NCBI GenBank assembly: GCA_001775055.1
Contig: MFBU01000022.1
Coordinates: forward strand, 3,278-67,277
Length of the DNA stretch: 64,000 nt
Direction: 5' to 3'
Source of the DNA: Candidatus Curtissbacteria bacterium RIFCSPLOWO2_02_41_11
GTDB lineage: Bacteria > Patescibacteriota > Microgenomatia > Curtissbacterales > GWA2-41-24
Below the pieces are notes generated by a model. It made no database searches. It had not been told where the DNA came from and worked only from the letters and a program-made list of their open reading frames with translations. The position numbers were made by a program, and so were the translations under genes. Within the stretch, counting starts at the first letter, position 1; each line of letters opens with the position of its first letter. This document shows positions 2,251 through 39,873 of this stretch, in pieces.

Positions 2251-2888
2251 AAAAAGACGATTACTTCCAGACCCATTTTGCAGGTTGTTATTATAGGGAA
2301 AAAAATAACCCTACTAATCAAAAAAAACTAAAAGAGATTATTTATTTAGGTTATAAGAACGGTAGGATTTTGGACATTGGTTGTGCTTATGGATTTTTCC
2401 TTGGAGAAGCAGACAAATATGGTTTTGAAACTTATGGTATTGATATCTCAAAATATGCCTTAGGTCAAGCTGATAAAAATACAAAAGCAAAGCTTGTTCG
2501 CTTAAATTTATCTACCGACAAAATTCCTTTTAAAGATGTTGACGTTTGTGTAATGCTAAATACTCTGGAGCATATTCCTAATTACTGGCAGCTTTTAGAA
2601 GAGGTAAAGAGGATATTAAAAAGAAAGGGGCTTCTGTGTTTATTCGTTCCAACAGAAAAACGCTGGCTCACAGATCCAACTCACATTAATTTTTTCACTG
2701 TTAATACACTAAGATTTGTTTTAGAAAAAGCTGGTTTTAAGATAATAAAAATTGGCGAAGAAGGAGGCATTTTCCAAATTCCCTTAGGGGTATTTAGACT
2801 TTTGGTTAAAGGTAATACTAATTTCAATTTCGTGCCTGAAGGAACCGGTTCCTTCATTTCCTGTTTTGCCCAGAAATATTTTTTTTAA
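2247..2888 (+). CDS. Class I SAM-dependent methyltransferase
   Basis: Motif I 'ILDIGCAYGFF' (a GxGxG-like SAM-binding loop) is present, followed by an acidic residue at the end of beta2 and 'LNTLEHIP' (motif II/III). The size is about 210 aa. Confidence 0.65.
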   Translation: MKKDDYFQTHFAGCYYREKNNPTNQKKLKEIIYLGYKNGRILDIGCAYGFFLGEADKYGFETYGIDISKYALGQADKNTKAKLVRLNLSTDKIPFKDVDVCVMLNTLEHIPNYWQLLEEVKRILKRKGLLCLFVPTEKRWLTDPTHINFFTVNTLRFVLEKAGFKIIKIGEEGGIFQIPLGVFRLLVKGNTNFNFVPEGTGSFISCFAQKYFF

Positions 2889-4599
2889 ACGCTAAAATAT
2901 TTTCGTCTCCATTAAAATTTTTGCTTATTTGTAATTCAACAAATTGATAATCTTTTTCAATCATTTTAGAAAACCACGTAGGTTCTATTTTTTCATCAAC
3001 TATTAGCCATTGAACATTATTGTTTTTGAAATAATTTTCAAAATTTACAATAAATTCTGGGTTTTCATCTAATTCCTGTTTAACTTTAGATATAGCTGTG
3101 TTTTCATCTGTAAAATATTTCTTTGAGGAGGGTGGTAAATTCGGGACTATGTCTGGAACTGTACTAACAACAAGTCCCTTAGCATACCAAAGTTGATGAG
3201 GGCCATGCAGTGAAAAAATTTTAGCTTCTGGATTATAAACACGTATATAATCATAAATCTCTCTATACTTTGTTGTATAACCTAAGCCCGGATCAGGGAA
3301 AGAGTTTGCAACGGTAACACTTGTAAAAAGTGTATTTTTAGTTAGATTTGGAATAGAGATTTTGACGCCGAATAGTAAAATAATCACCGCAGCAATTAAT
3401 AATGCCGAATTGCTACCTAATTTTAGGATCTTTACAGCTTTGTATATTGTGAAAATTACTCCCTGGGCAAAAAACCAATAAACAATTACGACCGCAGGGA
3501 AAAGATATCTAAGATTGTTGTATCTATTGGTTGCAAAAATCATTAACCCTAAATAACTAATAAGTAGAACTAACAAGAAAATGTTTTGATTTTTTTGAAC
3601 AGACTCTCTTTGTGTTAGCACATAAACTATCCCGACGGCAATCAAAATTAGAGCGAAAAGCGGCTGGGCGAAAAACTTTATTGATAAAAAGAAGTATTCA
3701 ATATTTGGTTGAGAAAATTCTATATGATTTCCAAAAAACCTTAAGCCAAATATTCCGAAGATAATTGCAGAAATTAATAAGGTTAAAAGAAGGTTTTTCT
3801 TCTTTGAAAAAGTTATCTTGAGATATTGAATTCTATATAGACTAAAAAGTATCACTGTTGGGATTAACAAAACTGTAAGTGGATGGATTTGGTAGGTTAC
3901 AAAAAATAGAAGCAATCCTAAGACACTTAATAGAATTTGATTTTTGAACGTTACTTTTCCTTTAATAAGTCTGAGAATGAGATGGATTATTAGAAAAAAT
4001 AATGTATAAAACATTGTGTACATTCTTACTGTCCGAGTTTGCCAAATAAGAGTGGGGTCGAAAACCAATTGGCTGAAGAAAACTAAAGTAAAAAGACCAG
4101 TTCCTTCAGTTTTGTATGCTATTATCAAAACTACAACTAAAAATAAAGTTCCCCAAAAGACCGAGGGTGTCCGGGCTACTGTTTCGTTTACTCCAAAAAA
4201 TTTGAATGATTGAGCAACTTGCCAGGTATAAAAAGATGCACGATTGTAAATATAATTTATAGGTTTATTGGCCGTTCGGTCCCAGTATAGAAATTTTCCG
4301 GTTTTGTTAAATCCTTCTGCCGTAAAAACGTGTCTGAATTCGTCACCATAAAACTCTAAACTTCCCAAGTTCTCAATCCTTAGCCAAATACCCCAAATAA
4401 AAAATACCGCAAGTGATAAAAGAAAAAGAGGTCTCGGTACTCGTAAGATTTTAAAACTAAAATATTTGTTGAATTTACTTATTAAATTACTATTAACTGG
4501 TTTTATTAGAGTCAGGAGTAAAAACAAAAAAACGAAAAGTAGCAAAATTGCAATTGGAATGCGAGCATTTTGGATTAAAAAAATTGCAAATTCTGTCAT
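2854..4599 (-). CDS. Polytopic membrane protein, GT-C-like (ArnT/PMT-type DE motif), with a C-terminal extracytoplasmic domain
   Basis: There are about 10 predicted TM helices at the N-terminus. The motif 'YGDEFRHV' follows the first TM cluster, and a roughly 180-aa hydrophilic C-terminal domain completes the protein. Confidence 0.4.
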   Translation of the reverse strand: MTEFAIFLIQNARIPIAILLLFVFLFLLLTLIKPVNSNLISKFNKYFSFKILRVPRPLFLLSLAVFFIWGIWLRIENLGSLEFYGDEFRHVFTAEGFNKTGKFLYWDRTANKPINYIYNRASFYTWQVAQSFKFFGVNETVARTPSVFWGTLFLVVVLIIAYKTEGTGLFTLVFFSQLVFDPTLIWQTRTVRMYTMFYTLFFLIIHLILRLIKGKVTFKNQILLSVLGLLLFFVTYQIHPLTVLLIPTVILFSLYRIQYLKITFSKKKNLLLTLLISAIIFGIFGLRFFGNHIEFSQPNIEYFFLSIKFFAQPLFALILIAVGIVYVLTQRESVQKNQNIFLLVLLISYLGLMIFATNRYNNLRYLFPAVVIVYWFFAQGVIFTIYKAVKILKLGSNSALLIAAVIILLFGVKISIPNLTKNTLFTSVTVANSFPDPGLGYTTKYREIYDYIRVYNPEAKIFSLHGPHQLWYAKGLVVSTVPDIVPNLPPSSKKYFTDENTAISKVKQELDENPEFIVNFENYFKNNNVQWLIVDEKIEPTWFSKMIEKDYQFVELQISKNFNGDENILAFKKNISGQNRK

Positions 4600-4692
4600 T
4601 TATTCGAATAAAAATCGATAGATTAGCAGGAGTAATAGTATAGCATTAAAACTTCTTTAAGAAATAAACCTTCTTTTTTTAAAATTTCACAG

Positions 4693-5661
4693 GTGATGGT
4701 GATACAATACGCTAAAATGAAACCCCGTGTGAAAAAGCCTTTCTACTCGGTTGTTATTCCAGTCTACAACGAGGAGAAAAATGTTACTAATTTACATCAG
4801 GAAGTTGTTAGTGTAATGAAAGGTCTCAAGAAGAAATTCGAAATAATTTTTGTAAATGACGGGTCCACAGATAGGACCTTAGATAGACTCAAAATTCTTT
4901 CTCCAATTAAAATAATAAATTTTAGAGCTAATTTTGGTCAATCATCATCGTTAGACGCGGGAATCAAAAGCGCCCGAGGTGAAATAATCATAACAATGGA
5001 TGGGGATGGACAAAATGATCCTAAAGATATCCCTAATCTGCTGAAAAAATTAGGCTGTGGTTTTGATGTAGTTTGCGGTTGGCGATACAAGAGAAAAGAC
5101 CCTTTTTTAAAGAAATTTATCTCGTTAGGGGCAAGAGAACTGAAGAAAATATTCGTTCAAGATGAAATTCACGATTCTGTTTGTGCTCTTCGTGTTTACC
5201 GCAGGGAATGTTTTGAGGATTTAGACCTTTATGGTGAGCTTCATAGGATGATTCCGGGATTACTAAAATGGAGAGGTTTTAGGGTAACTGAGATAAAAGT
5301 TAATCATAGATTTCGTAGGTATGGTAAAAGCAAGTACGACTGGAAGAGGATAATTAGGGGATTTCTAGACATGATAGGAGTTTGGTTTTGGAGAAATTAC
5401 GAAAGTCGTCCATTACATCTATTCGGAACTTTAGGACTGATGACTACAGTAATTTCAATAATTTTTGGCATGTATTTAGCAATTATGAGGATGTTTTTTG
5501 GGTATTATTTAAGAGATAAAATTTGGCCTCTTGTTGTCACAACTGCTTTTATATTCGGTATACAACTATTAGTCTTTGGGCTTTTAGCTGATTTGATTCT
5601 CAAAAATCGCCCTAAGAAAGACTTCTATAAAATAAAGGAGATTATTGATAATAAAAGTTGA
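4693..5661 (+). CDS. Polyprenyl-phosphate sugar synthase, GT2 (GtrB/ArnC/DPM1-like) with two C-terminal TM helices
   Basis: The N-terminal GT-A signature is 'YSVVIPVYNEEKNV...FVNDGSTDRT...DGDGQ' (DXD-like). The hydrophobic C-terminal hairpin 'LHLFGTLGLMTTVISIIFG...LVVTTAFIFGIQLLVFGLLADLI' is classic for Und-P/Dol-P sugar synthases. Confidence 0.75.
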   Translation: MMVIQYAKMKPRVKKPFYSVVIPVYNEEKNVTNLHQEVVSVMKGLKKKFEIIFVNDGSTDRTLDRLKILSPIKIINFRANFGQSSSLDAGIKSARGEIIITMDGDGQNDPKDIPNLLKKLGCGFDVVCGWRYKRKDPFLKKFISLGARELKKIFVQDEIHDSVCALRVYRRECFEDLDLYGELHRMIPGLLKWRGFRVTEIKVNHRFRRYGKSKYDWKRIIRGFLDMIGVWFWRNYESRPLHLFGTLGLMTTVISIIFGMYLAIMRMFFGYYLRDKIWPLVVTTAFIFGIQLLVFGLLADLILKNRPKKDFYKIKEIIDNKS

Positions 5662-11561: not shown

Positions 11562-12764
11562 TCAAATCACTTCGTGATACAGTCTCAAAAATTTTTTTGC
11601 TTGATTTTCCCATGAGTAACGACTCGCCTTCTCTTTTGCAACTTGCCCAAGTTGTCTGGCAGATGTTCTATCAGACAGCAATCTGTCAATAGCGGCTGAC
11701 AGTGCCTTAGTATCTCCTGCCTTTATAAGAAGTCCCTCCTGACCATCCTTCATAAGAGGATCAGATTCGTAAGTAGTAATAATGGGAAGACCGGAAGCCA
11801 TTGCTTCCATAAGTACCCCAGGCGATGCATCTGCGTAAGAAGGCAAACAAAAGATGCCTGCCTTTAAAAATATCTGACGTTTATTCTGATAACTAACAGC
11901 TCCTGTGAATTTAACTTGCTTTTTTAAGTTTTTTGCTTTTTTCTTTAATGCATAAATGATTCTTGGGGATCCAGAACCTGCGATTATTAATCTTGCTTTA
12001 GGAAATTTAGCCACTACTTGAAGAAAAACATCTATTAGGTCAAATATTCCTTTTCGCCAAGAGAGCTGCCCCATAAAAAGGACTGTTTGCGTTTGGCTTG
12101 TTTTAATCTTCGAGAATTTTTCAAAGTGGACCCCTTTGTGGATGTAAGAAAGATTCTTCAACTTTTTTTTCTTTAAAAAATCTAGGCCTTTTTGATGCTT
12201 TGAGATTAGTCTACCTTCTTGGCAATTATAAAAATTTTCTTGTCTCAAAAACTTCAAAAGAAACCAGTAGAATAAATTTTCAAAAAAGACGCTAGGAGAG
12301 AATTTTAAAGGTGATAACTCCTTTAGTCTTTCATTGGTATCTTTTTCAAAGTTTTTGTATTTTTTGGGTAGGATTACTCCCCAGAAAAAAATTGGTACAT
12401 TTGTAAAAAAATTTATTAAGGTATGAGTAAACTGAATAAATTGTATTATGTCTGGCTTGAAATCACGAATGGCCCTCAATGCGGTTAAATCCAATCTAAA
12501 CATCAGACTCCCTTCATATTTTCCTGATGCTGCCGAAGAGTTTGCCATATAGTGCTTGACATTTTCTTTTCTTAAGACTTTGCCAAACTCGATATTGAAT
12601 CTTTTTTGGTGAGTTTGTATTGGTTTGGGCGAAACTATAGCCACTTGGTGGCCAAGTGTGGAAAAGGCGCAAGCTAGCTCAAAAGTATCTCTCCAGACTC
12701 CTGAGTGATGAAACGAACCTTTAACTCCCCCATCAATCCATTTGGAAACTAAAAGAATTCGCAT
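11562..12764 (-). CDS. GT4-family glycosyltransferase
   Basis: The C-terminal motif 'PSYADASPGVLMEAMASGLPIITT' is present. The N-terminal GT-B domain has 'GG..........ELA..F..LGHQV'. Confidence 0.65.
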   Translation of the reverse strand: MRILLVSKWIDGGVKGSFHHSGVWRDTFELACAFSTLGHQVAIVSPKPIQTHQKRFNIEFGKVLRKENVKHYMANSSAASGKYEGSLMFRLDLTALRAIRDFKPDIIQFIQFTHTLINFFTNVPIFFWGVILPKKYKNFEKDTNERLKELSPLKFSPSVFFENLFYWFLLKFLRQENFYNCQEGRLISKHQKGLDFLKKKKLKNLSYIHKGVHFEKFSKIKTSQTQTVLFMGQLSWRKGIFDLIDVFLQVVAKFPKARLIIAGSGSPRIIYALKKKAKNLKKQVKFTGAVSYQNKRQIFLKAGIFCLPSYADASPGVLMEAMASGLPIITTYESDPLMKDGQEGLLIKAGDTKALSAAIDRLLSDRTSARQLGQVAKEKASRYSWENQAKKFLRLYHEVI

Positions 12765-12858
12765 AAACGATGCAAATATTCTAATTGATGCTAATTATAC
12801 GAATTGGTATTTTTTTATTAGTATCATTAGTATGCATTCGTATATTAGAATCGATTAA
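12765..12858 (-). promoter_or_regulatory. Intergenic region carrying a palindromic ATTCGTAT/ATACGAAT motif pair, shared with 28912-28998
   Basis: ATACGAAT at about 12796 and ATTCGTAT at about 12836 are reverse complements of each other. The flanking TTAGTATG and GATGCTAAT words also recur in the 28912-28998 spacer. The region lies immediately upstream of the minus-strand GT4 gene whose start is at 12764. Confidence 0.35.
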
Positions 12859-13623
12859 TTATGCTTTTCCTTTTACTGTATTTTGCTCCTGACTCTTGTT
12901 AATCTTGAGGATCACTTCTGTTAGGATAGTAGGCATAAATTGATTAAGGAGTTTTGTGTTGGGAATTATACAATGGCCACCAATTGTTCCTTTAACATAC
13001 TTTAGGATAGGTCTCAATACAAAAGGATTAGTCTTTGCATATCCCAAATTATAAATTTTATTAAACTTGGTATAAACATTGTTAAAATCTACTTTTTGCC
13101 TACTGCAAATTTCGGCAACAACTTTGTTGAAAATAATATTCCATGCATAATAAGTGCTATCTAACAATTTACCCAACTCAGATTCGATTGAATCATGTAA
13201 GGCAATGGTTTTGATACCAACACTGGACAAATGAACTTTAGCCAGTTTTAAAGACTTGGGACTTGTTGGCCCGATAAATTTAACAAACCTCATAATGTCT
13301 CGTCTTAGGTTTGGATGTTTCCCCATTATTGGGGAATGAACTGTAGGGATTTGCGTTTTTTGATAGATTTTTTGCGTTGTAGTTGGAATAACAGTTGCGT
13401 GGATAATAATTAAATTTGGTCGATTTTTTTCAACCTGGGAGATAACGGAGTTTATAAAACTATTCGTGTAAGGGATACAAACATGAAGAACATCAATCTT
13501 TGTATTTTTTAATTGATCGAAATTGCTATCCTTTTTTAAAACTTTAAACTGAGAGGAAAATATTTGAGAAATTGCTTTGCCTACTTCACCTATTCCTAAA
13601 ACACCAATCGTATATTTTGTCAT
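12859..13623 (-). CDS. NAD(P)-binding Rossmann-fold oxidoreductase (6PGDH/UDP-sugar dehydrogenase N-domain-like)
   Basis: The N-terminal segment 'YTIGVLGIGEVGKAISQIF' is a GxGxxG fold. The family is otherwise unassigned. Confidence 0.35.
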   Translation of the reverse strand: MTKYTIGVLGIGEVGKAISQIFSSQFKVLKKDSNFDQLKNTKIDVLHVCIPYTNSFINSVISQVEKNRPNLIIIHATVIPTTTQKIYQKTQIPTVHSPIMGKHPNLRRDIMRFVKFIGPTSPKSLKLAKVHLSSVGIKTIALHDSIESELGKLLDSTYYAWNIIFNKVVAEICSRQKVDFNNVYTKFNKIYNLGYAKTNPFVLRPILKYVKGTIGGHCIIPNTKLLNQFMPTILTEVILKINKSQEQNTVKGKA

Positions 13624-27819: not shown

Positions 27820-28911
27820 TTACGCTACCCAATATCCTTGAGTGAAAAGGGTAGTGCTGATTAAAAGAAGCATCACAAAAATTGTTAGGATTAAAATCTT
27901 AAAAAGAGTACTCTTAATTAAGCCTAAGACGATAAAAATTGGAAAGGCTACCAAGATGTATCTTGGCATTGAAGTCAGCGTTCCGGTTAAAGTCGGAGTT
28001 AAAACTGCCAAAAAACTAAAGACGAGCCACTCTGTTTTAACCTTCTTGTAAGCTACGACTAAAATAGCTAGAGCAAAGACAGTAGCAGTCAGCTCGAAAG
28101 CAGCTGATAACAAAGTCAACCCATTGGTTGTTGCAAGAATCTTCAAATACCTCCAAAAAACCTGTGGCAAAAGTACTATTTGAGTAGTTGATCTTTCTTG
28201 TCCCCAAACAGCTTGTGACGTTAAAAAATAAAAGGGATTATTGAACTCGATCCTTAAATAAAACATATAGACTAATAACCCTAGTGGTACTATCAATAAA
28301 GGAATTAATGACGTGACTTTTTTGCCCAACATCAGTGAAGGGGTAAGGAAAATTCCGATAAGTCTTGTCAAAGATGCGAATAAACCAATAATTGAGGCTA
28401 ACCAAATCTTATTTTTATCAAAAAGAAGAAAAACAGAAATTATCATTAAAAAAAATAAACCTTCGGTGTAAATTGAACCAAAATAGAAAGATGTCGGAAA
28501 TGTTAATAAAAAAAGACACGACCAAAAAGCTATTTTTCCGCCATGATATTTGTTAACAAGTTTGTGAAATATTACTAAAGCGAAAAAAAATGCAATATTG
28601 GAAATCAAAAGTCCAGCTATCAGAAAATTTCCAAAAGTTAAAAACGCGACAAATTTAATAAGTAAAGGGTAAAGTGGAAAGAAAGCCTGAGTATATTGAT
28701 AGACATAGCCATCTTTGGCAATTCTTAAATAGTGAACTCCATCAAAATTTCCAAATGACCAGATAAAGTGCGGTAAGTCAGTGTTAATTAACTCTTCTTC
28801 ATAGTAAGGAAAGCTTTTGCCGAAATTTGGTGGTAAAACTTGAGTGGCAATTGAGGTCACCGCAAACAACCCAATGCGCCAAATAAAGAAAAGAAGAAAG
28901 ATCTTTTGCAT
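27820..28911 (-). CDS. Polytopic membrane protein, GT-C-like (PIG-V/GT76-like mannosyltransferase family candidate)
   Basis: There are about 9 TM helices. The first loop 'FGNFDGVHYLRIAKDGYVYQYTQAFFPLYP' resembles the PIG-V family DxxHY...GY...AFFP pattern. Confidence 0.4.
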   Translation of the reverse strand: MQKIFLLFFIWRIGLFAVTSIATQVLPPNFGKSFPYYEEELINTDLPHFIWSFGNFDGVHYLRIAKDGYVYQYTQAFFPLYPLLIKFVAFLTFGNFLIAGLLISNIAFFFALVIFHKLVNKYHGGKIAFWSCLFLLTFPTSFYFGSIYTEGLFFLMIISVFLLFDKNKIWLASIIGLFASLTRLIGIFLTPSLMLGKKVTSLIPLLIVPLGLLVYMFYLRIEFNNPFYFLTSQAVWGQERSTTQIVLLPQVFWRYLKILATTNGLTLLSAAFELTATVFALAILVVAYKKVKTEWLVFSFLAVLTPTLTGTLTSMPRYILVAFPIFIVLGLIKSTLFKILILTIFVMLLLISTTLFTQGYWVA

Positions 28912-28998
28912 TTTTCTACATTCGTATGATTAGTATGAATTCGTATATTTGTATCGATGCTAATCTACTAATGGATGCTACTGATACGAATTTTAATC
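28912..28998 (-). promoter_or_regulatory. Intergenic region with ATTCGTAT (x2) and ATACGAAT half-sites, related to 12765-12858
   Basis: It shares TTAGTATGAATTCGTATATT, GATGCTAAT and ATACGAATT words with the 12765-12858 spacer. It lies upstream of the PIG-V-like gene start at 28911. Confidence 0.35.
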
Positions 28999-30033
28999 TC
29001 ACTTAACTATTGATTTATAGACTGCAATTGTTTGTCTGGCTACTTTTTGCCAGTTAAATTTAGATGCATGTTTAATTAATTTCTGGGAGGAAATTTCTTT
29101 TTGCCTTTTTGAAAGATTTAAGGCATGAGTTATTTTTTGGGCAATATCAGGAGGGTCTGTTGGATCACAAAAAATCGCATTATTGCCGGTAAATTCCGCT
29201 AGTGATGCTACATTAGAGCAAACCACCGGTGTACCACAAGCCATACTTTCTAAAACCGGCAGCCCAAAACCTTCATAAAATGACGGCAAAACAGTAAGCC
29301 CCGCAAGGTTGTAGATATATATCAGATCATTCTCATTGATATATCCCGTTTTGATAATTTGCTTTTGTAAACCTAGTTTTTTAATTATCTGATTAATTTC
29401 TTTAACTTGAGTTAAACTATCATCAGTCAGTGCCTTACCAACCATTACCAGATTGACTTTGGCAATTTTAACAGCCTCAAGTAAATTTGGAAGATTTTTA
29501 TTCCAGTTAACATCTCCAACATAAAGAACAAATTTTTTGGGGAGAATATATTTTTTTGAAACTGAAAAAAGGGTATTTTCGTCAGTTATCTCCTTAAAGT
29601 TGAAACCGGCAGCTAAATAAACAACATGAATTTTGTCTTTGGGGAAAGAAAGTTTTGAAACAATATCCTTCTTGGATGCTTGCGAATCACAGATAATTGC
29701 ATCGACATTTTTGAGAGATCTCTTTTGAAAAAACAGACTGATGTAACCTTTAAGCCCAACTGGGAAGTAGTGGGGAAAGACTAAAGGAATAACATCATGG
29801 ATAGTCACTACCCTATTCGTAGTCTTTTTCATTGGCAGTGTATGAAAAAAAAGATCAAAATAAGGATAGTGAATAACGTCTGCTGGTGGGGGAGAGGTGG
29901 GTTTTGAGAAAAATTCAAATTCTATCCCCCAATCTCTTTTTTTAAACTCCTCTGTCAATCTTTGGGTATATGAACCAATTCCTCTTGTCTTATGCCCTGT
30001 TCCAAGTGGGCTTATGTCAATCGCGACTTTCAC
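28999..30033 (-). CDS. GT4-family glycosyltransferase
   Basis: The motif 'PSFYEGFGLPVLESMACGTPVVCSNVASLAEF' is present. Confidence 0.7.
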   Translation of the reverse strand: MKVAIDISPLGTGHKTRGIGSYTQRLTEEFKKRDWGIEFEFFSKPTSPPPADVIHYPYFDLFFHTLPMKKTTNRVVTIHDVIPLVFPHYFPVGLKGYISLFFQKRSLKNVDAIICDSQASKKDIVSKLSFPKDKIHVVYLAAGFNFKEITDENTLFSVSKKYILPKKFVLYVGDVNWNKNLPNLLEAVKIAKVNLVMVGKALTDDSLTQVKEINQIIKKLGLQKQIIKTGYINENDLIYIYNLAGLTVLPSFYEGFGLPVLESMACGTPVVCSNVASLAEFTGNNAIFCDPTDPPDIAQKITHALNLSKRQKEISSQKLIKHASKFNWQKVARQTIAVYKSIVK

Positions 30034-30057
30034 AATGATTTAATTATATCAACAAAC

Positions 30058-30118
30058 CAAAAAAACCCACCTTCCGTTGACTTAATAGGATATTCCTTTA
30101 TCAAACCGTTAAGGTGGG
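30058..30118 (-). terminator. Rho-independent terminator/attenuator candidate: a stem of CCCACCTT/AAGGTGGG, then a T7 tract on the minus strand
   Basis: On the minus strand the sequence reads cccacctt-(loop ~37 nt with inner GGA/TCC pairing)-aaggtggg followed by TTTTTTTGGTTTGTT. It lies 140 nt downstream of the 30259 stop and 25 nt upstream of the 30033 start. Confidence 0.45.
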
Positions 30119-30142
30119 CAGACTTTGCAAAGTCTTAAAAAC

Positions 30143-30172
30143 TTATCTCTTCTTCTTTCGTTTCTTTGCCAT
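30143..30172 (-). other. Mini-ORF of 9 codons (MAKKRKKKR) with a canonical Shine-Dalgarno sequence (AAAGGAGGT, 8-nt spacer)
   Basis: The minus strand reads ggaaaggaggtagagatct ATG GCA AAG AAA CGA AAG AAG AAG AGA TAA. It is followed by the palindrome GACTTTGCAAAGTC and then the terminator hairpin. Confidence 0.25.
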
Positions 30173-30258
30173 AGATCTCTACCTCCTTTCCAAAACTTGA
30201 GTATATAACTAAAATTGTTAGCAAGTTTTAAATATTTATGCAATAGGGCAAAATGATG

Positions 30259-31023
30259 CTAGCGGCGTTCCCAATATTTGACATACGCGTAGAAGTGGTG
30301 TGCCGCCGAAAATAAAGCCCAGACAAACCCCCTAAAACCATCAACATAACCCCGATGTCTAACAAAAATATCGAAAAAAGTGACAAGTGGCTTTAGAACC
30401 ATGTAGTAAAAAACCGGCCAAGGCCCCCTACCCGGATCTATCTCTCTAAGCTTTTGAGCAGTTTGATCTGTATAACGGTCGGCTCGATAAAGGTATCTGG
30501 CAAATGAGGGATCGGCCATGTGAAGAATGTCGTTTTTTAGATACCCTACTTCCCCATCAATTGCAACCTGTTCATGAACACTAACTTCGGGAAGCCTGCC
30601 TTTGCCTCGTCTAAAAAGCCTAATCACACTATCAGGATAAGCTCCGCCCTTTGTTAAATAACCGCCTAAAAACCAATTGCGACGATTGATCCAAAAACCG
30701 TTCTCTTTGGGGTTTTTAGAGATAATTCCTTTGATCTCACCGACTAATTCTTTACTGACCCTTTCATCGGCATCCATTAGAAAAATCCAGTCGCTAGTGC
30801 AATTATCTATAGCTAAATTTTTATTAATGTGAAACATTGGTTTATTAGTTGTTTTAATAATTTTTGCACCCAGATTCTCTGCCAGTTCTCTGGTTCTGTC
30901 TGTTGATGACCCGTCAGCTACCACTATCTCATCGGCAAAATTTTTTAAAGACTCGATACAATCAACAATATTTTCCTCCTCATTAAATGTTGCCAGTGCA
31001 GCTGAAATTTTTATCTTTTTCAT
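30259..31023 (-). CDS. GT2-family glycosyltransferase (WaaE/KdtX-like subfamily); paralog of 51411-52172 and 56118-57023
   Basis: The motif 'ISAALATFNEEENIVDCIESLKNFADEIVVADGSSTDRT...MDADER' is present. The shared C-terminal 'GG.YPD...RLFRRGKG' motif links the three paralogs. Confidence 0.65.
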   Translation of the reverse strand: MKKIKISAALATFNEEENIVDCIESLKNFADEIVVADGSSTDRTRELAENLGAKIIKTTNKPMFHINKNLAIDNCTSDWIFLMDADERVSKELVGEIKGIISKNPKENGFWINRRNWFLGGYLTKGGAYPDSVIRLFRRGKGRLPEVSVHEQVAIDGEVGYLKNDILHMADPSFARYLYRADRYTDQTAQKLREIDPGRGPWPVFYYMVLKPLVTFFDIFVRHRGYVDGFRGFVWALFSAAHHFYAYVKYWERR

Positions 31024-32621
31024 TTTGGATGACCTATTTTAATCGCTTCTTTTCCGTTAGGATAATAAATTGTTTCAATGACTTCAAAGCCGCCGGGGAA
31101 ATTTCCGCTATCGGCAATAAAAAGCTCACTGGGAGTTGTCGGCGGTTTGGTGTCGAAGTAATATTTGTCAAAGTTTTGCCTCGTACCGCTTTGTTGATAA
31201 CTCCTGGGGTCATACTTAGTATTAAAAAGCCAGAACACGTACGCCTGTTCGATTGAATGATCGACATTAATTTTAGTGTATTGATTTTTGATTTTCTCGG
31301 ATTCTAGAACAGCTTCCTTATATCCATACTGCCAAAAATCTGCCTTGTCGTATGGATAATGTCTCCAGTAGTTATGAAGGTAAACTATGATTGATACACC
31401 AATCCATAAGATATAAAAATATTGAACAGGTTTTTTAAGTAAAAACTCCATAGAAAAAATTGAAACCAGCGCATAGGCACTAATGATCTGAAGCGCTGGG
31501 TCCATCGGTAGAGACCGGTTACCATGCGGATTAGGAACAGCCGGTGTTGCAGGAATTGGGGCAATCAGAAGCCATGCAAGAAGAAAGGCTGAAGTTTTAT
31601 TGCGATTTCTAACAAGCAAAAAGATACCATATAAAACTAGAGGAAATTGAAAAAGATAGACCATCCCTATATTTCCAATATGATGCCTGAAATTATCATC
31701 GCCTTTAGTGAAAAGAAAATTAAAATCAAAATGAGAAAGATAATTGCCAAACCATGTTTGGCCAATAACAAATCTTCTGTTATGAATATATTTGCCGAGC
31801 TTCGATCCCCTTTCCTGATCTTCTAGAATAAATTTTATTGATTTTTCGATATCCTCAAGTCTTGGTCTGCCAGTGGTAACTTCAAATCTTTGTAAGATTA
31901 CTTTTGGCGGTATTAATATTACAAGCGGCAGTCCGATTAGAATAGTAATGATGATAAAAATACCTAGATACCTTTTAGAAACGGTAAGTATCTCTTTTCT
32001 CCAAATAAAAAATGTTGCTATAAAAAGTAGCGGTACAAAAATCCGCTCTGAATGATAGGTATAAGTAGAAATCCCTAAAAATATGCCGCTTACTATTAAC
32101 CATCTTCTACTGGCTAACCCATATAAAAATGCAGTAATGGCTGCGACTGCAAAAAAAAGGCCAACCGTAGCCTCAAAACCGACTCGAGAAAATTGCAAGT
32201 GCCAAGGCGAAATGGCCAACATTAGCATAGATAGAAGAGCGATTGACTCACTCTTGACAACTGACAACTGACCACTGACATTTGACTTTTCAAAGATTTT
32301 TCTGGCTAAAAAATACATTGCTGGAACTGTCAAAAAACCAAAAAATGCGGAAGGAAGTCTTGCGGCAAATGGGGTTAGACCAAAAATTGCCACTGTCACT
32401 ACATTCAAATACATGTATAGAGGGGGTTTATAATCATCAAAGGAGCGATTGGTAATCGGCAAAAAGTTGCCGTATTCATCCCGTCCAGTTTTAAGAATCG
32501 AGTAGGCATTGTAAGCATTACTGTTTTCATCCCAATCCAAACTTAGTGGAATTTCTCCTAATTTATAAAATCTCAAAATAAAAGCCAAAACTAAAATCGC
32601 CCAAAAGATTTTTTTTGTCAT
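31020..32621 (-). CDS. ArnT/PMT-like GT-C glycosyltransferase, tandem paralog 1 of 5
   Basis: There are about 12 TM helices. The segment 'LDWDENSNAYNAYSILKTGRDEYGNFLPI' is the loop-1 DE motif. 'ISPWHLQFSRVGFEA' is conserved across the paralogs. The C-terminal soluble domain is about 120 aa. Confidence 0.65.
   Translation of the reverse strand: MTKKIFWAILVLAFILRFYKLGEIPLSLDWDENSNAYNAYSILKTGRDEYGNFLPITNRSFDDYKPPLYMYLNVVTVAIFGLTPFAARLPSAFFGFLTVPAMYFLARKIFEKSNVSGQLSVVKSESIALLSMLMLAISPWHLQFSRVGFEATVGLFFAVAAITAFLYGLASRRWLIVSGIFLGISTYTYHSERIFVPLLFIATFFIWRKEILTVSKRYLGIFIIITILIGLPLVILIPPKVILQRFEVTTGRPRLEDIEKSIKFILEDQERGSKLGKYIHNRRFVIGQTWFGNYLSHFDFNFLFTKGDDNFRHHIGNIGMVYLFQFPLVLYGIFLLVRNRNKTSAFLLAWLLIAPIPATPAVPNPHGNRSLPMDPALQIISAYALVSIFSMEFLLKKPVQYFYILWIGVSIIVYLHNYWRHYPYDKADFWQYGYKEAVLESEKIKNQYTKINVDHSIEQAYVFWLFNTKYDPRSYQQSGTRQNFDKYYFDTKPPTTPSELFIADSGNFPGGFEVIETIYYPNGKEAIKIGHPK
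32255..32287. repeat. In-frame heptamer tandem repeat (CTGACAA-type x4-5) inside ArnT-like paralog 1, encoding SGQLSVVK
   Basis: 'ttgacaactgacaactgaccactgacatttg' is seen directly. It is related to 27695-27780 and 59217-59236. Confidence 0.5.
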
Positions 32622-34399
32622 GGTAATTTGACCTGACTGACATCATAGATTTCAAAAATTGTGTCGCCTCGCAAATCATCTATAGTGTAGATTGGCGGTT
32701 TAGGAAACTCGATTTCTTTTTCCCCCGCAACAATTAACGTTTTTGTCGGTAGACGATCGATCCCTGGTACTGAGTCGACAAAATCGTATTTTCCGATGCT
32801 ATCAAGTATTACCCAACCGTCCTGGGATTTATGTCTTTGGGCATTTTGAATAAAGTAAGCCGGGTTAACCTTTGCAAAATAGAGATACTGCATATATTGA
32901 TGACCATAGTCAATTTTTCTTGAAATGACAATCTTGTCGTATTCCTGTTCTTTTGAGGCAAGATAGTTAAAAAGCTCCTTGTACCCGAATCTTTGAAAAC
33001 GGCTGGTAAAATATGGCTCACTGTAAAACATATCAGGTATCAACTTAACTACTGATCCTAAAATAGTGATAGTCAATACGATAATAAAAATATTTTTAAA
33101 GAATTTTGACTTTAATGAAGCTACAAAAGTATAAATGCCAAAGGCAACAATGATCTCAAGCGATGGCATAATCAGATTAATTCTTCCATAATTACCAGAT
33201 CCGGCAAAGGAAGCGCCTATTGGCACAAAAAGCAGCCAAGGTATTAATATTTTTAGTGCTTGATTTTTTTGCTTTATAAGTAAAAATATCCCCAAAATTA
33301 AAAATGGTAACTCAAACAAGTAAACTACACTTCTGGTGCTAAATGACTGGAAACCAGATGGATTTGCTTTATCAAAATAAGTCTTAAAAGATAAATTCCC
33401 AGCATAATTGCTAATATAAGTTGAAGCAAAAGTTAAAAATTTATTGTAGGTTAATGTACAAAAAATATTTGGCAGATGTTCTTTACAAACACCGCGCCTC
33501 TCATTTATATCAGCATTGATTCCAGCTCGAGCCACCCCGGAAATAAAACTCTCCTGAAGAAATCTCGACTGACCCTTAAAGGTTAGTACTGTAGGCAGGA
33601 GAGGTAAAAACAATATAAAGGCCAAAATCAAATTCTTGGCTAAATATACTTTTGGTATTTTAAACTGCTGTCTAAACGAGTAGATCACTACTGATATAAA
33701 CAGTGGCAAAAAAACCCAAGCAGATCGATAAACATAAAAAGAAATAACAAAACCTAAAAAAGAAAAGGTAATAAATTTTTTATTTTTTAAACCTACTAAG
33801 AAAAAGTAAGTTGAGATGGTTATAAAGAAAACTAATAAATCAGACTCAAAAGCATTTCTTGATGCCGCTATATGCCAGGGTGAAATTGCCAGAAGAAATG
33901 CAGCTACGAGGGCTATGACTTCGTTGCGGGTCCTGTCAGTCGTTTCCTTCCCGCCAGTGCTCGCTTTGTGCAAGTTCGTTATTTTACTTTGATTCCATAT
34001 AGAAGCTCCGCGCTGTCGGGAACCTTCCCACAACTGCCACCCGCTCCTGTCTTCGAATAGTTTTTTCGTCAATAAATAAGTAGCAAAGACTGCAAAAACT
34101 CCAAACAAGGCTGATGGGAATCGCGTTGCAAATTCATTCATACCGAAGAAAAATTGAGATATAGCTGTGAGGTAAAGATAGACTACAAGCTTCCAGTCAC
34201 CAAAACTTTCGAAAGCAGGAAAGGGTAAAAACCTGCCCCACTCATCCATGCCGGTTTTTAAAATCGAATAGGCATTATAGCCAAAAGCAGCTTCGTCATC
34301 GTTAAATCCAACTGGAATACTTGCCAGATTTATAAAACGAAGAAGAATTGCTACTGTAATTATCGAAATTATGATTAAATTATTTTTGAGATACTTCAT
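32618..34399 (-). CDS. ArnT/PMT-like GT-C glycosyltransferase, tandem paralog 2 of 5 (carries a 45-aa GC-rich insert)
   Basis: The motifs 'GFNDDEAAFGYNAYSILKTGMDEWGRFLP' and 'ISPWHIAASRNAFES' are present. An insert 'RSGWQLWEGSRQRGASIWNQSKITNLHKASTGGKETTDRTRNE' lies between the conserved blocks. Confidence 0.65.
   Translation of the reverse strand: MKYLKNNLIIISIITVAILLRFINLASIPVGFNDDEAAFGYNAYSILKTGMDEWGRFLPFPAFESFGDWKLVVYLYLTAISQFFFGMNEFATRFPSALFGVFAVFATYLLTKKLFEDRSGWQLWEGSRQRGASIWNQSKITNLHKASTGGKETTDRTRNEVIALVAAFLLAISPWHIAASRNAFESDLLVFFITISTYFFLVGLKNKKFITFSFLGFVISFYVYRSAWVFLPLFISVVIYSFRQQFKIPKVYLAKNLILAFILFLPLLPTVLTFKGQSRFLQESFISGVARAGINADINERRGVCKEHLPNIFCTLTYNKFLTFASTYISNYAGNLSFKTYFDKANPSGFQSFSTRSVVYLFELPFLILGIFLLIKQKNQALKILIPWLLFVPIGASFAGSGNYGRINLIMPSLEIIVAFGIYTFVASLKSKFFKNIFIIVLTITILGSVVKLIPDMFYSEPYFTSRFQRFGYKELFNYLASKEQEYDKIVISRKIDYGHQYMQYLYFAKVNPAYFIQNAQRHKSQDGWVILDSIGKYDFVDSVPGIDRLPTKTLIVAGEKEIEFPKPPIYTIDDLRGDTIFEIYDVSQVKLP
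33905..34060. repeat. GC-rich ~150-nt island embedded in-frame in an AT-rich CDS (insert of paralog 2)
   Basis: There is a local composition shift (e.g. 'gcgggtcctgtcagtcgtttccttcccgccagtgctcgc', 'gctccgcgctgtcgggaaccttcccacaactgccacccgctcc'). The flanking sequence is otherwise AT-rich. Confidence 0.4.
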
Positions 34400-34401
34400 T
34401 A

Positions 34402-35910
34402 TTAAGGAACTACTTCATAAAACCGCATAAAACTATTACCTCTACCCTTTTGGTATTTGCCAATTAATTTAAGACGAGGGTTACCCGGGTCATCAGGAAG
34501 GTTTTGGTTTTCGTTAAAGACAAAAAAAGTCTTTTTAACTTTGGCAGCTTCCAAAACCTGCTGTGGAATATCCCTAACTGGCCAGAATCCGGTAATCTGG
34601 ATATTTGGATTACTATAAAAGTAAATTTGAATAGCAAAAGGTAAAAGCCCAAAGGTGCCTTCAGTTCCAACATAGACTGGTTGGCTTTTTGTTTCATGTT
34701 TTAGGATTGCCACAATTTCCTCCACACCATAACCGGCCGGCCAGTCATTTAAGTATTGACCAAGATCTGCATCGGCAATATTGGCCTTTGGAGGTTCTGT
34801 TAGTAATCTATATGAATTGATAGCCGGAAAAACAAAAATGATCGCAAAAATCACCCACAAATATTTCAAGTAATTTTTCCACCTAATTAAATTTATTACA
34901 CCAAAAGATACTAGGATAACTATATAAGGGAAATAAAAAAGCATAAAACGAGGATATAAAACTTTATTAAAAATACTCTCTGCCAGAAACGGCGCCAAAG
35001 CATAAACCGAAAGCAAAATAATTACCCCCTTTCGCCTAATTAAACCCCATGTAATAACCAAAACGGCAATAATTGTCAGCGGCCAGCCATTATATTGAAC
35101 AAACCATGAAATTAAGGCATGAAGATTGCTGGGCAATTGAATAAATGGGTTATTTATAATTTCGTTAAAAGATCTGATAAATTCAGATTCTTTACGCTCA
35201 ATCATATAAAACAGTGGCGAGAGTCTTAAACTATTGTAAATTACCTGTGAGAGCAAAAAAGTAACAACTGAAAAGATAACCCATTTAAATAATCTAAAAC
35301 TGTAATCTCTACTCTTGAAATTAAAAACCAATAGAGAAAAAGGGAGTAGATACAAAAAAAGGATGCCTGAAGATTTAGTAATCATTGTTAGTCCAATAGC
35401 AAAACTGGCAAGCATGGCAGTTTCAAATCTTGGATCTTTGGCCATCTTTATCGAAAAGTAAACTGCCCAAATACCCAACATGGTAAGCAGAGAATCAAAA
35501 AGGGCCATTCGGTCATACAGGAGCGTGAAGGGTAAAATGACATATAAAAAGGCCGCAAGTTTGGCCACTTTCTCAGAAAATAACAGTCTGGCTAAGAAAT
35601 AGATTCCTACCAGAGAACCAAACCCTGCAAAAACAGAAACGAGTCTTCCGGCTATTAACGGATCAGGGATAAATTGCTGAAAAATTGCTGCAATCCAAAT
35701 GAATAAAGGCTGCTTTCCATCCTCCAGAGAAATAAATCTGTTAGCAGGATCATGGAGTGCTACTTGTGCCCAATAAGTATAAATTGCCTCATCAGTAAAT
35801 ATTGGAACTATTTTTAAATTGATAAGTCTTGTAGCAAAATAAAGTACACTAAAGCTAGACCAAAGGATCAAAGATTGCAGTTGGATTAAAACTACGGGTT
35901 TAGGCTTCAT
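34402..35910 (-). CDS. ArnT-like GT-C glycosyltransferase (PMT_2-type, GT39/GT83-like)
   Basis: The motif 'FTDEAIYTYWAQV' follows TM1, and the protein has about 13 TM helices. It is distinct from the five-paralog family and is inserted between paralogs 2 and 3. Confidence 0.5.
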   Translation of the reverse strand: MKPKPVVLIQLQSLILWSSFSVLYFATRLINLKIVPIFTDEAIYTYWAQVALHDPANRFISLEDGKQPLFIWIAAIFQQFIPDPLIAGRLVSVFAGFGSLVGIYFLARLLFSEKVAKLAAFLYVILPFTLLYDRMALFDSLLTMLGIWAVYFSIKMAKDPRFETAMLASFAIGLTMITKSSGILFLYLLPFSLLVFNFKSRDYSFRLFKWVIFSVVTFLLSQVIYNSLRLSPLFYMIERKESEFIRSFNEIINNPFIQLPSNLHALISWFVQYNGWPLTIIAVLVITWGLIRRKGVIILLSVYALAPFLAESIFNKVLYPRFMLFYFPYIVILVSFGVINLIRWKNYLKYLWVIFAIIFVFPAINSYRLLTEPPKANIADADLGQYLNDWPAGYGVEEIVAILKHETKSQPVYVGTEGTFGLLPFAIQIYFYSNPNIQITGFWPVRDIPQQVLEAAKVKKTFFVFNENQNLPDDPGNPRLKLIGKYQKGRGNSFMRFYEVVP

Positions 35911-37622
35911 CTAATCTCTAATTCTCCGACATCGAATACACTAGTTCCGTCAAGCCTTGAGATTGTCTTAAGTTTTTGAACCGAAGGTGGGAGCGCATTG
36001 GGTGAAGTAACATACAACACCTTACCGGAAACCGAAGTTTCATTTAAACTGTCTGTGAAGCGTAATTTACCAAAACCGTCAACGTCTATAAAAAAGAATT
36101 TGTCTCTTGTAATTTGAGCGCTTTTCCAATACTCCCGAGGATCAAATTGCATATATAATAAAAAGTAAATGTAAGGTCTTCCTTGAGCTTTAGTCACTAC
36201 CACATAATCAACGTCATTGTATCTTGGTTTAATAAATTCTACCGCTTCTTTGTATCCAAACTGCCACTCTCCTGAATAATTTCTCGGCCAGTGAACATAA
36301 TACATATGCAGATAAAATAAAAAGTTAAAAGTAAAAAGTAAAAAGTAAAAAATTATAAAAAGTTTTTTATATCTAATTACTCGATAAAGATAAAATAAGC
36401 CAAAAGCGGCAAGTATTTGAAAAGTAGGCAAGATATGAATCATCCTGAGCGCATGGGGAGTTTCTCGGGCAGTTGCCGGTCCAAACGGTGAAATAAGAAG
36501 CCAACCAATAATTAAAAAGCGATATTTTTGTTTGGTAGCAAATAAAAAGTAGATACCAGCAAGAATAAATAGTAGATCAACATAATAAAGTTCGCCTACT
36601 TCCTGAACAGAAAGCCTTGGATTAACATCGCCTTTTGTAAAAAGGAACCTCGGATTGAATGAATCAAAATAATGGGTGAGATATTCATATGAATAGAATA
36701 GACGCCGGTTATGAATAATGTCTGACCACCAAGAAAAATTGTCTCTTGCGCGATACCGAATTGAGTCATTAATCGGTTGCAGATCTTTAAAAATAGTTAC
36801 TTCATCAAATCTCAGTCTGCCTTCAATAGTTTGGGTTGTAAAAATAAAAAGAGGCCAAAATAAAATACTAGTAATTAAGGCTGTTATTAAAACAATTTTG
36901 ATTTGGGCAAAAACCTGTTTTCGAAATTGAATCGCTAGTACTAAAAGAATAAAAGGGACAAACAAGCGTTGGCCTGTAAAAGTATACATCCCGGCAAGAA
37001 ACGAAAGAACAGACGGCAAAATCCATAATGGATTATCTTGAGCAAATTTCAGAAACAGCCAAATACCAAGAACTGAGAAAAAAAGACCCAGATTTGCTTC
37101 AAACGCGCCTCTTGAAAATTGAAGATGCCAAGGGGAAATAGCCAGGAAAAAGGCGGATAGTAAAGCAATTGTTTCAGAAGTACTAAAGGTACGAGAAGTA
37201 CCAGAAGTACGAGAGGTTAAGTTCAGAGATTGCTTTTCGTACCTTTCATACTTTTCGTACTTGTGATACTTTTCTACAAAGAGTTTTTTGGCCAGAAAAT
37301 ATGTCAATAAAACTGTCAAAACACCAAAAAAAGCAGATGGAAATCTAATTGTAAATTCAGTTAGGCCAAAGGCGGCAATTGAAGGCACTGTCGCATAGAT
37401 ATAGCCTGGTGGTTTGTAATCACCGAATGCTGCAAAGTTGGTAATTGGTAAAAATTTACCGTGTTCATCATGACCAGTTTTTAAAATTGAGTAGGCATTA
37501 TAACCAAGTGATGCCTCGTCCCAATAAAGAGAAGGTGGAACAGATCCGAGTTTATAAAACCTTAATACTGCCGCAATGAAAATAATAACGATAAGTATAT
37601 ATTTACTTAATTTTTTGGGCAT
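35907..37622 (-). CDS. ArnT/PMT-like GT-C glycosyltransferase, tandem paralog 3 of 5 (carries a repeat-hairpin insert)
   Basis: The motifs 'LYWDEASLGYNAYSILKTGHDEHGKFLPI' and 'ISPWHLQFSRGAFEA' are present. An insert 'KYHKYEKYERYEKQSLNLTSRTSGTSRTFSTSE' lies between the conserved blocks. Confidence 0.65.
   Translation of the reverse strand: MPKKLSKYILIVIIFIAAVLRFYKLGSVPPSLYWDEASLGYNAYSILKTGHDEHGKFLPITNFAAFGDYKPPGYIYATVPSIAAFGLTEFTIRFPSAFFGVLTVLLTYFLAKKLFVEKYHKYEKYERYEKQSLNLTSRTSGTSRTFSTSETIALLSAFFLAISPWHLQFSRGAFEANLGLFFSVLGIWLFLKFAQDNPLWILPSVLSFLAGMYTFTGQRLFVPFILLVLAIQFRKQVFAQIKIVLITALITSILFWPLFIFTTQTIEGRLRFDEVTIFKDLQPINDSIRYRARDNFSWWSDIIHNRRLFYSYEYLTHYFDSFNPRFLFTKGDVNPRLSVQEVGELYYVDLLFILAGIYFLFATKQKYRFLIIGWLLISPFGPATARETPHALRMIHILPTFQILAAFGLFYLYRVIRYKKLFIIFYFLLFTFNFLFYLHMYYVHWPRNYSGEWQFGYKEAVEFIKPRYNDVDYVVVTKAQGRPYIYFLLYMQFDPREYWKSAQITRDKFFFIDVDGFGKLRFTDSLNETSVSGKVLYVTSPNALPPSVQKLKTISRLDGTSVFDVGELEIR
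37176..37274. repeat. Inverted pair of 9-nt tandem repeats (GTACGAGAA-type arms) forming a ~100-nt imperfect hairpin, in-frame within paralog 3
   Basis: The left arm is 'ggtacgagaagtaccagaagtacgagag'. The right arm, 'cttttcgtacctttcatacttttcgtacttgtgatacttttc', is its approximate reverse complement. Confidence 0.5.
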
Positions 37623-37658
37623 GTTTATAAAAATTTATAATTAATCATAACAAATTTG

Positions 37659-39855: not shown

Positions 39856-39873
39856 TGATGACGCTATTAATTA

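Follow-up and report, generated by a model that had tools for sequence, protein, structure and literature searches.

What do two short intergenic spacers in a densely packed Curtissbacteria genome share, and what does the similarity between them represent? The stretch considered here, referred to below as the window, is a 64-kb section of contig MFBU01000022.1 from Candidatus Curtissbacteria bacterium RIFCSPLOWO2_02_41_11, with a G+C content of 34–36%, in which glycosyltransferase and polysaccharide genes form a long, dominant series on the minus strand. Public records also list proteins identical to its own under Curtissbacteria GW2011_GWC2_38_9. The spacers at positions 12765–12858 (spacer 1) and 28912–28998 (spacer 2) were read in a preliminary description as operators of a common dimeric regulator at two operon heads. 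We favour a different reading, to which we assign a probability of roughly 60%: that both are cargo-less derivatives of an element carrying a gene of the GxxExxY family, comparable to doublets of repetitive extragenic palindromes (REPINs) or to miniature inverted-repeat transposable elements (MITEs) and possibly co-opted, rather than the operators of a regulon.

The sequence observations behind the earlier proposal were reproduced. The spacer limits agree with the map of open reading frames (ORFs), the two spacers belong to a set of 14 gaps that exceed 7 nt in length, and both terminate at a minus-strand ATG start codon. The word ATTCGTAT is present on the plus strand at 12836–12843, 28920–28927 and 28939–28946, and its complement ATACGAAT at 12797–12804 and 28984–28991. 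Together these words have six matches in the 64 kb, compared with 2.0 expected (a count of six was reached in 1 of 100 shuffles), and five of the six fall within the 181 nt of the two spacers, that is, 0.28% of the window, with the sixth at 25708. Two further words, TTAGTATG and GATGCTAAT, are each restricted to the two spacers in the window; their counts alone are unremarkable, and it is their co-location that is unusual. The similarity exceeds these words, since a 46-nt direct repeat (12810–12855 and 28913–28958) is 83% identical between the spacers.

The unit underlying this similarity is a 39-nt module, or arm, two of which make up each spacer. A module consists of four tandem octamers of the form ATTMGYAT (O1 to O4), beginning at positions 0, 9, 19 and 27 and followed by a CG "tip", and may be written (T)ATTMGTAT-M-ATTMGYAT-NM-ATTMGTAT-ATTRGYAT-CG; the arm is thus an array of direct octamer repeats without an internal dyad. 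Using a position weight matrix and a profile hidden Markov model (searched with nhmmer), both built from homologous modules of other genomes, exactly four modules were found in the window, all of them in the two spacers and none elsewhere, with full agreement between the methods. Their matrix scores (37.6–49.7 bits) compare with at most 15 bits in 20 shuffles, and their nhmmer E-values range from 4e-11 to 6e-7. The features are as follows.

12765–12858, minus strand: spacer 1, a doublet with its tips outward (M2 and then M1 in the direction of the genes), filling the gap from the stop codon of a 254-aa gene (12859–13623) to the start codon of a GT4 glycosyltransferase gene (11562–12764)
12767–12805, minus strand: M1, AATTCGTATAATTAGCATCAATTAGAATATTTGCATCGT, 37.6 bits, nhmmer E=6e-7, CG tip 3 nt from the GT4 start codon at 12764
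12781–12837, minus strand: arm-encoded ATG and 18-codon ORF MHTNDTNKKIPIRIISIN*, of which the first seven codons specify the peptide, encoded by the arm, with which GxxExxY genes also open; probably without function as a gene
12806–12815, no strand: 10-nt loop of spacer 1 between the two O1 ends (GGTATTTTTT on the plus strand)
12816–12854, plus strand: M2, TATTAGTATCATTAGTATGCATTCGTATATTAGAATCGA, 49.7 bits, E=4e-11, tip 5 nt from the stop codon of gene 12859–13623
28912–28998, minus strand: spacer 2, an 87-nt doublet with its tips inward, between the stop codon of a GT4 gene (28999–30033) and the start codon of a PIG-V-like gene (27820–28911)
28919–28957, plus strand: M3, CATTCGTATGATTAGTATGAATTCGTATATTTGTATCGA, 47.5 bits, E=7e-10, O1 end 8 nt from the PIG-V start codon
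28954–28992, minus strand: M4, AATTCGTATCAGTAGCATCCATTAGTAGATTAGCATCGA, more degenerate, 40.1 bits, E=3e-7, overlapping M3 by 4 nt

Both spacers are therefore short non-coding units of 87–94 nt in total with terminal inverted 39-nt arms, which in spacer 2 meet at a shared ATCGAT (28953–28958). The reverse-complementary octamers of the preliminary description are real; they do not form a compact dyad but are matching octamers of the two inverted arms, lying 31–56 nt apart, compared with the roughly 12–24 bp of a compact dyad site for a dimeric transcription factor. A divergent spacer at 4600–4692, between genes 2854–4599 (minus strand) and 4693–5661 (plus strand), shares the words ATTCGAAT, ATCGAT and AGATTAGCA with spacer 2; it was considered as a further module and set aside, as it scores with neither the matrix nor the hidden Markov model, and may represent either a decayed arm or chance.

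The module is by no means confined to this genome. The pattern ATTNGTATNATTNGTATNNATTNGTAT, for which fewer than about one chance match is expected under uniform base composition, was scanned in one genome per species of GTDB, and at least 119 loci of other genomes carry the module. These belong mostly to many lineages of the candidate phyla radiation (CPR, or Patescibacteria), with a few in Bacteroidota. The CPR groups among the listed matches include Jorgensen-, Wolfe-, Azam-, Magasanik-, Taylor-, Campbell-, Staskawicz-, Buchanan-, Sungii-, Levyi- and Curtissbacteria as well as Paceibacterota, and many listed loci are labelled Saccharibacteria. The Bacteroidota matches are genuine, with NadA/NadB and Nqr genes in the same loci. 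Some metagenome-assembled genomes are labelled Gammaproteobacteria; this label is doubtful, as NusG similarity (with E. coli NusG as the comparison sequence) suggests that the loci may be CPR-like. A module core that is nearly constant in CPR and Bacteroidota would mark horizontal exchange between them, and the observations agree with the horizontal spread of a dispersed element with a nuclease-family cargo gene. The counts that follow refer to the listed loci of other genomes, numbered with the prefix L, in which genes are simple ORF calls and taxa are labelled as in the records.

Conservation within the module is position-specific. At the positions left unspecified by the search pattern (27–36), 76–99% of 148 modules agree: A27 in 146, T28 in 143, T29 in 143, G31 in 143, A33 in 145, T34 in 142, C35 in 115 and G36 in 112. 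In other words, positions 27–29, 31, 33 and 34 are conserved at 96% or more and the CG tip at 76–78%, while position 30 is a two-state R and position 32 a two-state Y. The positions that the pattern does specify are confirmed by 52 further modules that were found by the matrix only and fail the strict pattern. This much of the earlier proposal stands, namely a non-random motif with the position-specific conservation expected of a protein-binding site, and the octamer array may be bound by the element's own protein or by a conserved host protein.

The arrangement of the modules relative to genes is highly regular. The tip lies 2–20 nt (mode 7) before a same-strand start codon in 69 cases and, in 58 cases, 0–8 nt (mode 2–3) away from a stop codon on the opposite strand. 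The prevailing layout between co-directional genes runs from a stop codon through an arm with its tip to that stop, a gap of 0–49 nt, and an arm with its tip to the next start codon; sensitive detection gave 51 groups of such tips-outward doublets, plus variants, and the gap range was measured in 40 strong doublets, nearly all of which separate co-directional genes. Each tips-outward doublet thus directs one arm, antisense, at the stop codon of the upstream gene. True single arms are nearly balanced, with 10 pointing toward starts and 9 toward stops. The neighbouring genes, where downstream ones were named by reading translated N-termini, include tuf, groEL, dnaK, dnaJ, ssb, rplK, rpsC, pyrG and epimerase genes. 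The lack of relation among the neighbours and the balance of single-arm directions indicate that the module is not bound to a functional class of genes and has no orientation preference.

These data bear directly on the idea that the spacers are operators at which a dimeric or oligomeric host transcription factor co-regulates glycosyltransferase operons. Such operators would account for the position-specific conservation, for the strictly intergenic location, for the placement of both spacers before gene starts, and for the retention of spacer 1 in a relative (see below). The two spacers are nevertheless opposite in architecture, the neighbours of the module are functionally unrelated in more than 100 loci from many phyla, its arms adjoin stop codons as often as start codons, spacer 2 is missing from the orthologous junction of four relatives, and, in the manner of a mobile or selfish element, the module has a physical link with a gene of the GxxExxY nuclease family. 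In addition, no candidate regulator stood out among the 10 neighbouring proteins covered by Pfam scans. A shared dimeric regulator at two operon heads is thus very improbable and is the least supported of the explanations considered; as a caution for annotation, inverted words shared by two spacers need not mean a regulon.

The link to GxxExxY genes favours the reading as a mobile-element derivative. In five loci (L030, L039, L089, L093 and L119) two tips-outward arms enclose an ORF of about 134 aa; in L124, an ORF of this kind is flanked by a complete doublet on either side. The ORF belongs to the family TIGR04256 (63–67 bits; PF13366, PD-(D/E)XK superfamily), for which 1,431 related protein clusters at 90% identity were found at E≤1e-10. 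The module occurs within 150 nt of 11 of 12 GxxExxY-like ORFs, 7 of which are bracketed on both sides, these being proportions biased by the choice of loci for their modules. The gene starts inside the arm: ATG-NAT-ACK-AAT-KAT-ACK-AAT, which encodes M-x-T-N-x-T-N, is the reverse complement of O3 to O1. An independent check came from a set of 5.8 billion proteins, in which this peptide is present in 87 of the 120 best GxxExxY homologues and stands at residue 1 in 75, with named sources in Bacteroidota, Azam- and Wolfebacteria, Parcubacteria, Minisyncoccota and Patescibacteria. As most of these homologues carry the arm-encoded N-terminus, the arm and the gene constitute one unit. By analogy, the short doublets may stand to the GxxExxY unit as MITEs and REPINs stand to their parent elements. 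The possibility that doublet loops are recognisable remnants of GxxExxY ORFs was considered and found no support, since the peptides following M-x-T-N-x-T-N are unrelated, rich in stops, and not conserved among doublets.

Comparison of orthologous sites revealed different histories for the two spacers. Seven strain-level loci (L001–L007) have spacers identical to those of the window and are uninformative. At the junction corresponding to spacer 2, four relatives have no module: the GT4 and PIG-V genes overlap by 4 nt in L214 (PIG-V protein 76% identical), and are separated by a 4-nt gap in L008 (70%); in L010 (66%) a different gene lies upstream of the PIG-V gene, across a 5-nt gap; and in L009 (69%) the junction holds a four-helix-bundle "23S rRNA IVP" gene with other repeat words. 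The absence of the module in L008–L010 and L214 indicates that spacer 2 is an insertion in the lineage of the window. The overlapping or 4–5-nt-spaced genes at this site in the relatives suggest translational coupling. The L009 gene (positions 1965–2500 of that locus, from Curtissbacteria RBG_13_40_7; TIGR02436/PF05635) sits exactly at the GT4/PIG-V junction and is flanked by the words TTCGAAAT and ATTCGA-like words, with an end reading ...GCATCGTTACAAATCA-ATG. Small selfish cassettes seem to have landed at this junction repeatedly.

Spacer 1, on the other hand, is retained. In L210 and L211, where the GT4 protein is 81% identical, the same 94-nt spacer differs by three substitutions (91 of 94 nt, 96.8% identity), compared with 82–87% identity for its flanking genes in L210 and 68–80% at their third codon positions. 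The binomial probability of three or fewer changes is about 2e-6 to 3e-12 at a third-position divergence of 20–32%, and about 1e-3 at the overall flanking-gene divergence of 13%. In L213, a relative at 54%, the spacer is absent. The presence of the motif in orthologous spacers, proposed earlier as a check on its regulatory role, therefore gives a divided answer: spacer 1 is kept in L210/L211 and absent in L213, and spacer 2 is absent in all of L214, L008, L010 and L009.

Such constraint, together with the distance of tips from start codons, brings in the view that each arm is an outward promoter of the sigma-70 type, with TATATT (positions 24–29) as the −10 element, a 6-nt discriminator, transcription starting at the pyrimidine/purine pair C35-G36, and short leaders lacking a Shine-Dalgarno sequence. 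The geometry of the sequence is suitable, with TATATT nearly invariant, the CG tip at about 76–78% and the spacing right; the 69 start codons with a tip 2–20 nt before them include those of tuf, groEL, dnaK, ssb and rplK; and in M1 an AATATT lies 10 nt before the GT4 ATG within the constrained spacer 1, with TATATT at that place in L210. Shine-Dalgarno sequences are also rare in the window organism, where even a loose tetramer precedes only 11 of 53 ORFs, and TATAAT is found 6–10 nt before the ATG at other operon heads of the window, namely the starts at 24121 (minus), 44427 (plus), 58492 (minus), 30033 (minus) and 10460 (minus). To judge from these sequences, leaderless or very-short-leader mRNAs may be widespread in this Curtissbacterium. 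However, promoters would not be expected to be neutral in orientation, as the single arms are (10 versus 9), or to send one arm of each doublet antisense into the upstream gene. There is no −35 element 16–18 nt upstream (TTMGTA, which comes closest, agrees at 3 of 6 positions), a consensus scan calls nothing inside the modules, contacts with RNA polymerase do not explain four equal octamers, and the spacer 2 arm that faces the PIG-V gene ends 44 nt from its ATG. Moreover, L085 has a doublet upstream of tuf, and none of 75 loci with tuf 68–88% identical to it has the module there, so that a conserved CPR promoter was rejected. Taken as the primary function of the family, the promoter explanation is contradicted by the orientation data, the lack of a −35 element and the tuf comparison, and we regard it as unlikely; individual arms may still act as promoters.

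Other short-period tandem words occupy the 60 nt upstream of tuf in loci L130–L168 (e.g., L168, L153, L141, L148, L133 and L152), such as ATAAGCT four times in L168, AAATTTC-like words in L153, TTAGGAT/TTAGAAT in L141 and CCTAAAA in L133. CPR genomes in general may carry intergenic arrays of 7–9-nt units, with words that differ by lineage.

The paired arms of a doublet differ from each other in a systematic manner. Across the 40 tips-outward doublets, partners share the base at a degenerate position in 117 of 440 comparisons, compared with 200 ± 10 when arms are re-paired across loci. The two partners carry A and C at positions 3, 8, 18 and 22, and A and G at position 30, and the information that a position carries about the same position of its partner (0.32–0.57 bits) exceeds the within-arm linkage between positions (≤0.15 bits). 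Given this weak linkage, the idea that the differences arise from two fixed types of arm, a left and a right one, was rejected, and the pattern is nearly symmetric as to which arm is upstream; only position 18, where C makes the ATG of the cargo gene, tracks the gene-start arm. The mean length of the longest run of perfect complementarity is 8.1 nt (mode 7), compared with 11.8 nt in re-paired controls. Mismatch between partners is the opposite of compensatory change and points to selection against a long perfect hairpin or cruciform; the A/C and A/G differences would be maintained by that selection, with the core ATT-GYAT positions apparently kept in both arms. Enforced arm mismatch of this kind is an unusual and clean signature, suggesting anti-hairpin selection with a binding code preserved. 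A separate within-arm association of 0.62 bits was seen between positions 17 and 37 in the modules of L011–L129, where G17 goes with C37, and T, C or A at 17 with A or T at 37; the positions lie 20 nt apart, and neither the ATG, a partner effect nor visible pairing accounts for it.

The same mismatches weigh on an explanation at the RNA level, according to which a transcribed doublet forms an AU-rich hairpin that serves as an RNase III-like processing site of the kind seen at 23S rRNA intervening sequences, a terminator or insulator, or a stabiliser of mRNA between cistrons. Inverted-repeat doublets within co-directional runs, right after stop codons, are what such a role would predict, and spacer 1 folds somewhat better than shuffled sequences (z = −2.2 sense, −2.9 antisense). 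Intervening sequences of rRNA are known to carry GxxExxY and four-helix-bundle genes, and a gene of the latter kind lies at the spacer 2 junction of L009. Yet selection appears to favour mismatch of the paired arms at every degenerate position, holding perfect stems to about 7–8 bp, the sense fold of spacer 2 (z = −0.67) is no better than shuffles, and in single-strand folding it is the antisense rather than the sense strand that folds better. Neither spacer contains a GC-rich stem with a U-tract, no terminator was called in either, and single arms occur in both orientations. Rfam gave no family at the gathering threshold for the whole window or at E≤5 for both spacers, chance hairpin matches being far below threshold. 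A primary role in RNA processing or stability is accordingly quite improbable.

We therefore return to the spacers as cargo-less derivatives of a GxxExxY element. In this proposal, each spacer would be a copy of a small dispersed inverted-repeat element built from 39-nt arms, the complete form of which brackets a protein of about 134 aa, with the start and first seven codons of its gene given by the reverse complement of one arm. Spacer 2 would be a recent lineage-specific insertion and spacer 1 an older copy now under strong purifying selection. The GxxExxY protein may bind the octamer array and mobilise the element, which would spread without target-site duplications. For the arm adjacent to the GT4 gene, co-option as a promoter with a short leader (AATATT, 10 nt, ATG) is possible and would explain the constraint on spacer 1.

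Several observations weigh against this proposal. The loci were selected with a pattern derived from the window, so that the frequencies given above are biased. The tips-inward form of spacer 2 is rare elsewhere, found in 2 of 42 strong pairs and in L071, L023, L081 and L113, and because of it a simple terminal-inverted-repeat model fails for this spacer. No direct repeat of 2–5 nt above chance was detected at six offsets around 40 doublets, leaving a classical cut-and-paste origin, or a MITE of the DDE type, unsupported. About 83 kb of this genome contain no GxxExxY gene and only two doublets, indicating a low copy number. A search of PDB sequences gave no solved GxxExxY homologue, and the literature searched held no demonstrated activity for the family. 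Finally, the conservation of spacer 1 and the near-identity of the core across distant lineages would be explained by a host function no less well than by selfish spread.

Among described systems, the closest parallel is offered by repetitive extragenic palindromic (REP) sequences and REPINs with their associated tyrosine transposases (RAYTs), including the bacterial interspersed mosaic elements (BIMEs) of E. coli. Both are short extragenic repeats, arranged mainly as inverted doublets with a short spacer, located between co-directional genes or behind stop codons, and free of target-site duplications; both include one small nuclease-type gene bracketed by two inverted repeats, and the non-identical partners of a doublet recall the Y and Z units of BIMEs. 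In contrast to REP sequences, however, the present arm consists of four direct octamers rather than a self-complementary hairpin and has no GTAG/CGTC head, the associated gene encodes a PD-(D/E)XK (GxxExxY) protein and not a Y1/HUH transposase, and the repeat hardly varies among many phylum-level lineages, REP sequences being species-specific. In lacking target-site duplications, the spread resembles that of the REPIN-RAYT or homing type, but with arms that are not hairpins and a gene that is not a Y1 transposase the module is a member of neither family.

MITEs such as the Correia elements of Neisseria (Correia repeat enclosed elements, CREE) are likewise non-coding units of about 90 nt with terminal inverted repeats, lie in intergenic regions in either orientation, have filled and empty orthologous sites (as for spacer 2, filled in the window and empty in relatives), and can in principle provide outward promoters or hairpins. 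Unlike MITEs, the 40 doublets are not surrounded by target-site duplications, their presumed parent encodes a 134-aa protein with a nuclease fold from a family, GxxExxY, that is not a demonstrated transposase, and their arms show position-specific purifying selection instead of the near-identity of a recent burst. Elements of the intervening-sequence type (TIGR02436/PF05635 and TIGR04256/PF13366) share the GxxExxY family itself and the layout of a small ORF between repeats, and one of their four-helix-bundle genes occupies the very GT4/PIG-V junction of L009; the present copies differ in lying between protein-coding genes rather than in 23S rRNA helices, and in that the window copies lost or never had an ORF, while the L009 flanks use TTCGAAAT-like words. 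A possible further parallel lies in the short tandemly repeated repetitive (STRR) heptamers of cyanobacteria that form heterocysts, which are intergenic tandem arrays of 7–9-nt units in lineages likewise rich in GxxExxY and four-helix-bundle genes. They are longer and more homogeneous than the present arms, without the fixed four-unit architecture, the CG tip or the inverted partner.

A description of the module was not found in the literature searched, which covered the octamers, CPR promoters, repeats and MITEs, and GxxExxY, with most subscription journals outside it. Tentatively, and at somewhat short of even odds, we propose that the arm and the GxxExxY PD-(D/E)XK protein form an undescribed repeat-plus-nuclease system, analogous to REPIN-RAYT but with a different fold and a direct-repeat binding array, which spread across CPR/Patescibacteria and into Bacteroidota and whose doublets without cargo have been retained between essential genes, where selection maintains the positions contacted by protein yet forces the arms to mismatch. 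If true, such a system would give the GxxExxY family (TIGR04256/PF13366) a concrete function. CPR bacteria represent a large share of bacterial diversity, and their packed genomes of about 1 Mb have very few recognised cis-acting or mobile elements; the module may also yield portable expression signals for genetically tractable members of the group.

Two other features of the window were observed. The first is a micro-gene in the 225-nt gap upstream of the GT4 gene 28999–30033, located at 30034–30258 on the minus strand, with counterparts at 1242–1464 in L008 and 457–923 in L009. It comprises, in order, a conserved CTTGCTAACAATTTT box, a strong Shine-Dalgarno sequence (GGAAAGGAGG), a 9-codon ORF (MAKKRKKKR*), a hairpin (GACTTTGCAAAGTC), and a long terminator-like hairpin (CCCACCTTAACGG...CGGAAGGTGGG) with a T-run. 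The region has no Rfam match; its layout and an almost identical peptide recur at the orthologous place in these two relatives. The second lies at 32474–41466, where paralogous segments of 58–122 nt, 63–81% identical, recur in five consecutive minus-strand genes for proteins of 500–590 aa, with PMT_2-type genes nearby at 31020–32621 and 53056–56091, which points to a probable tandem family of large membrane glycosyltransferases.

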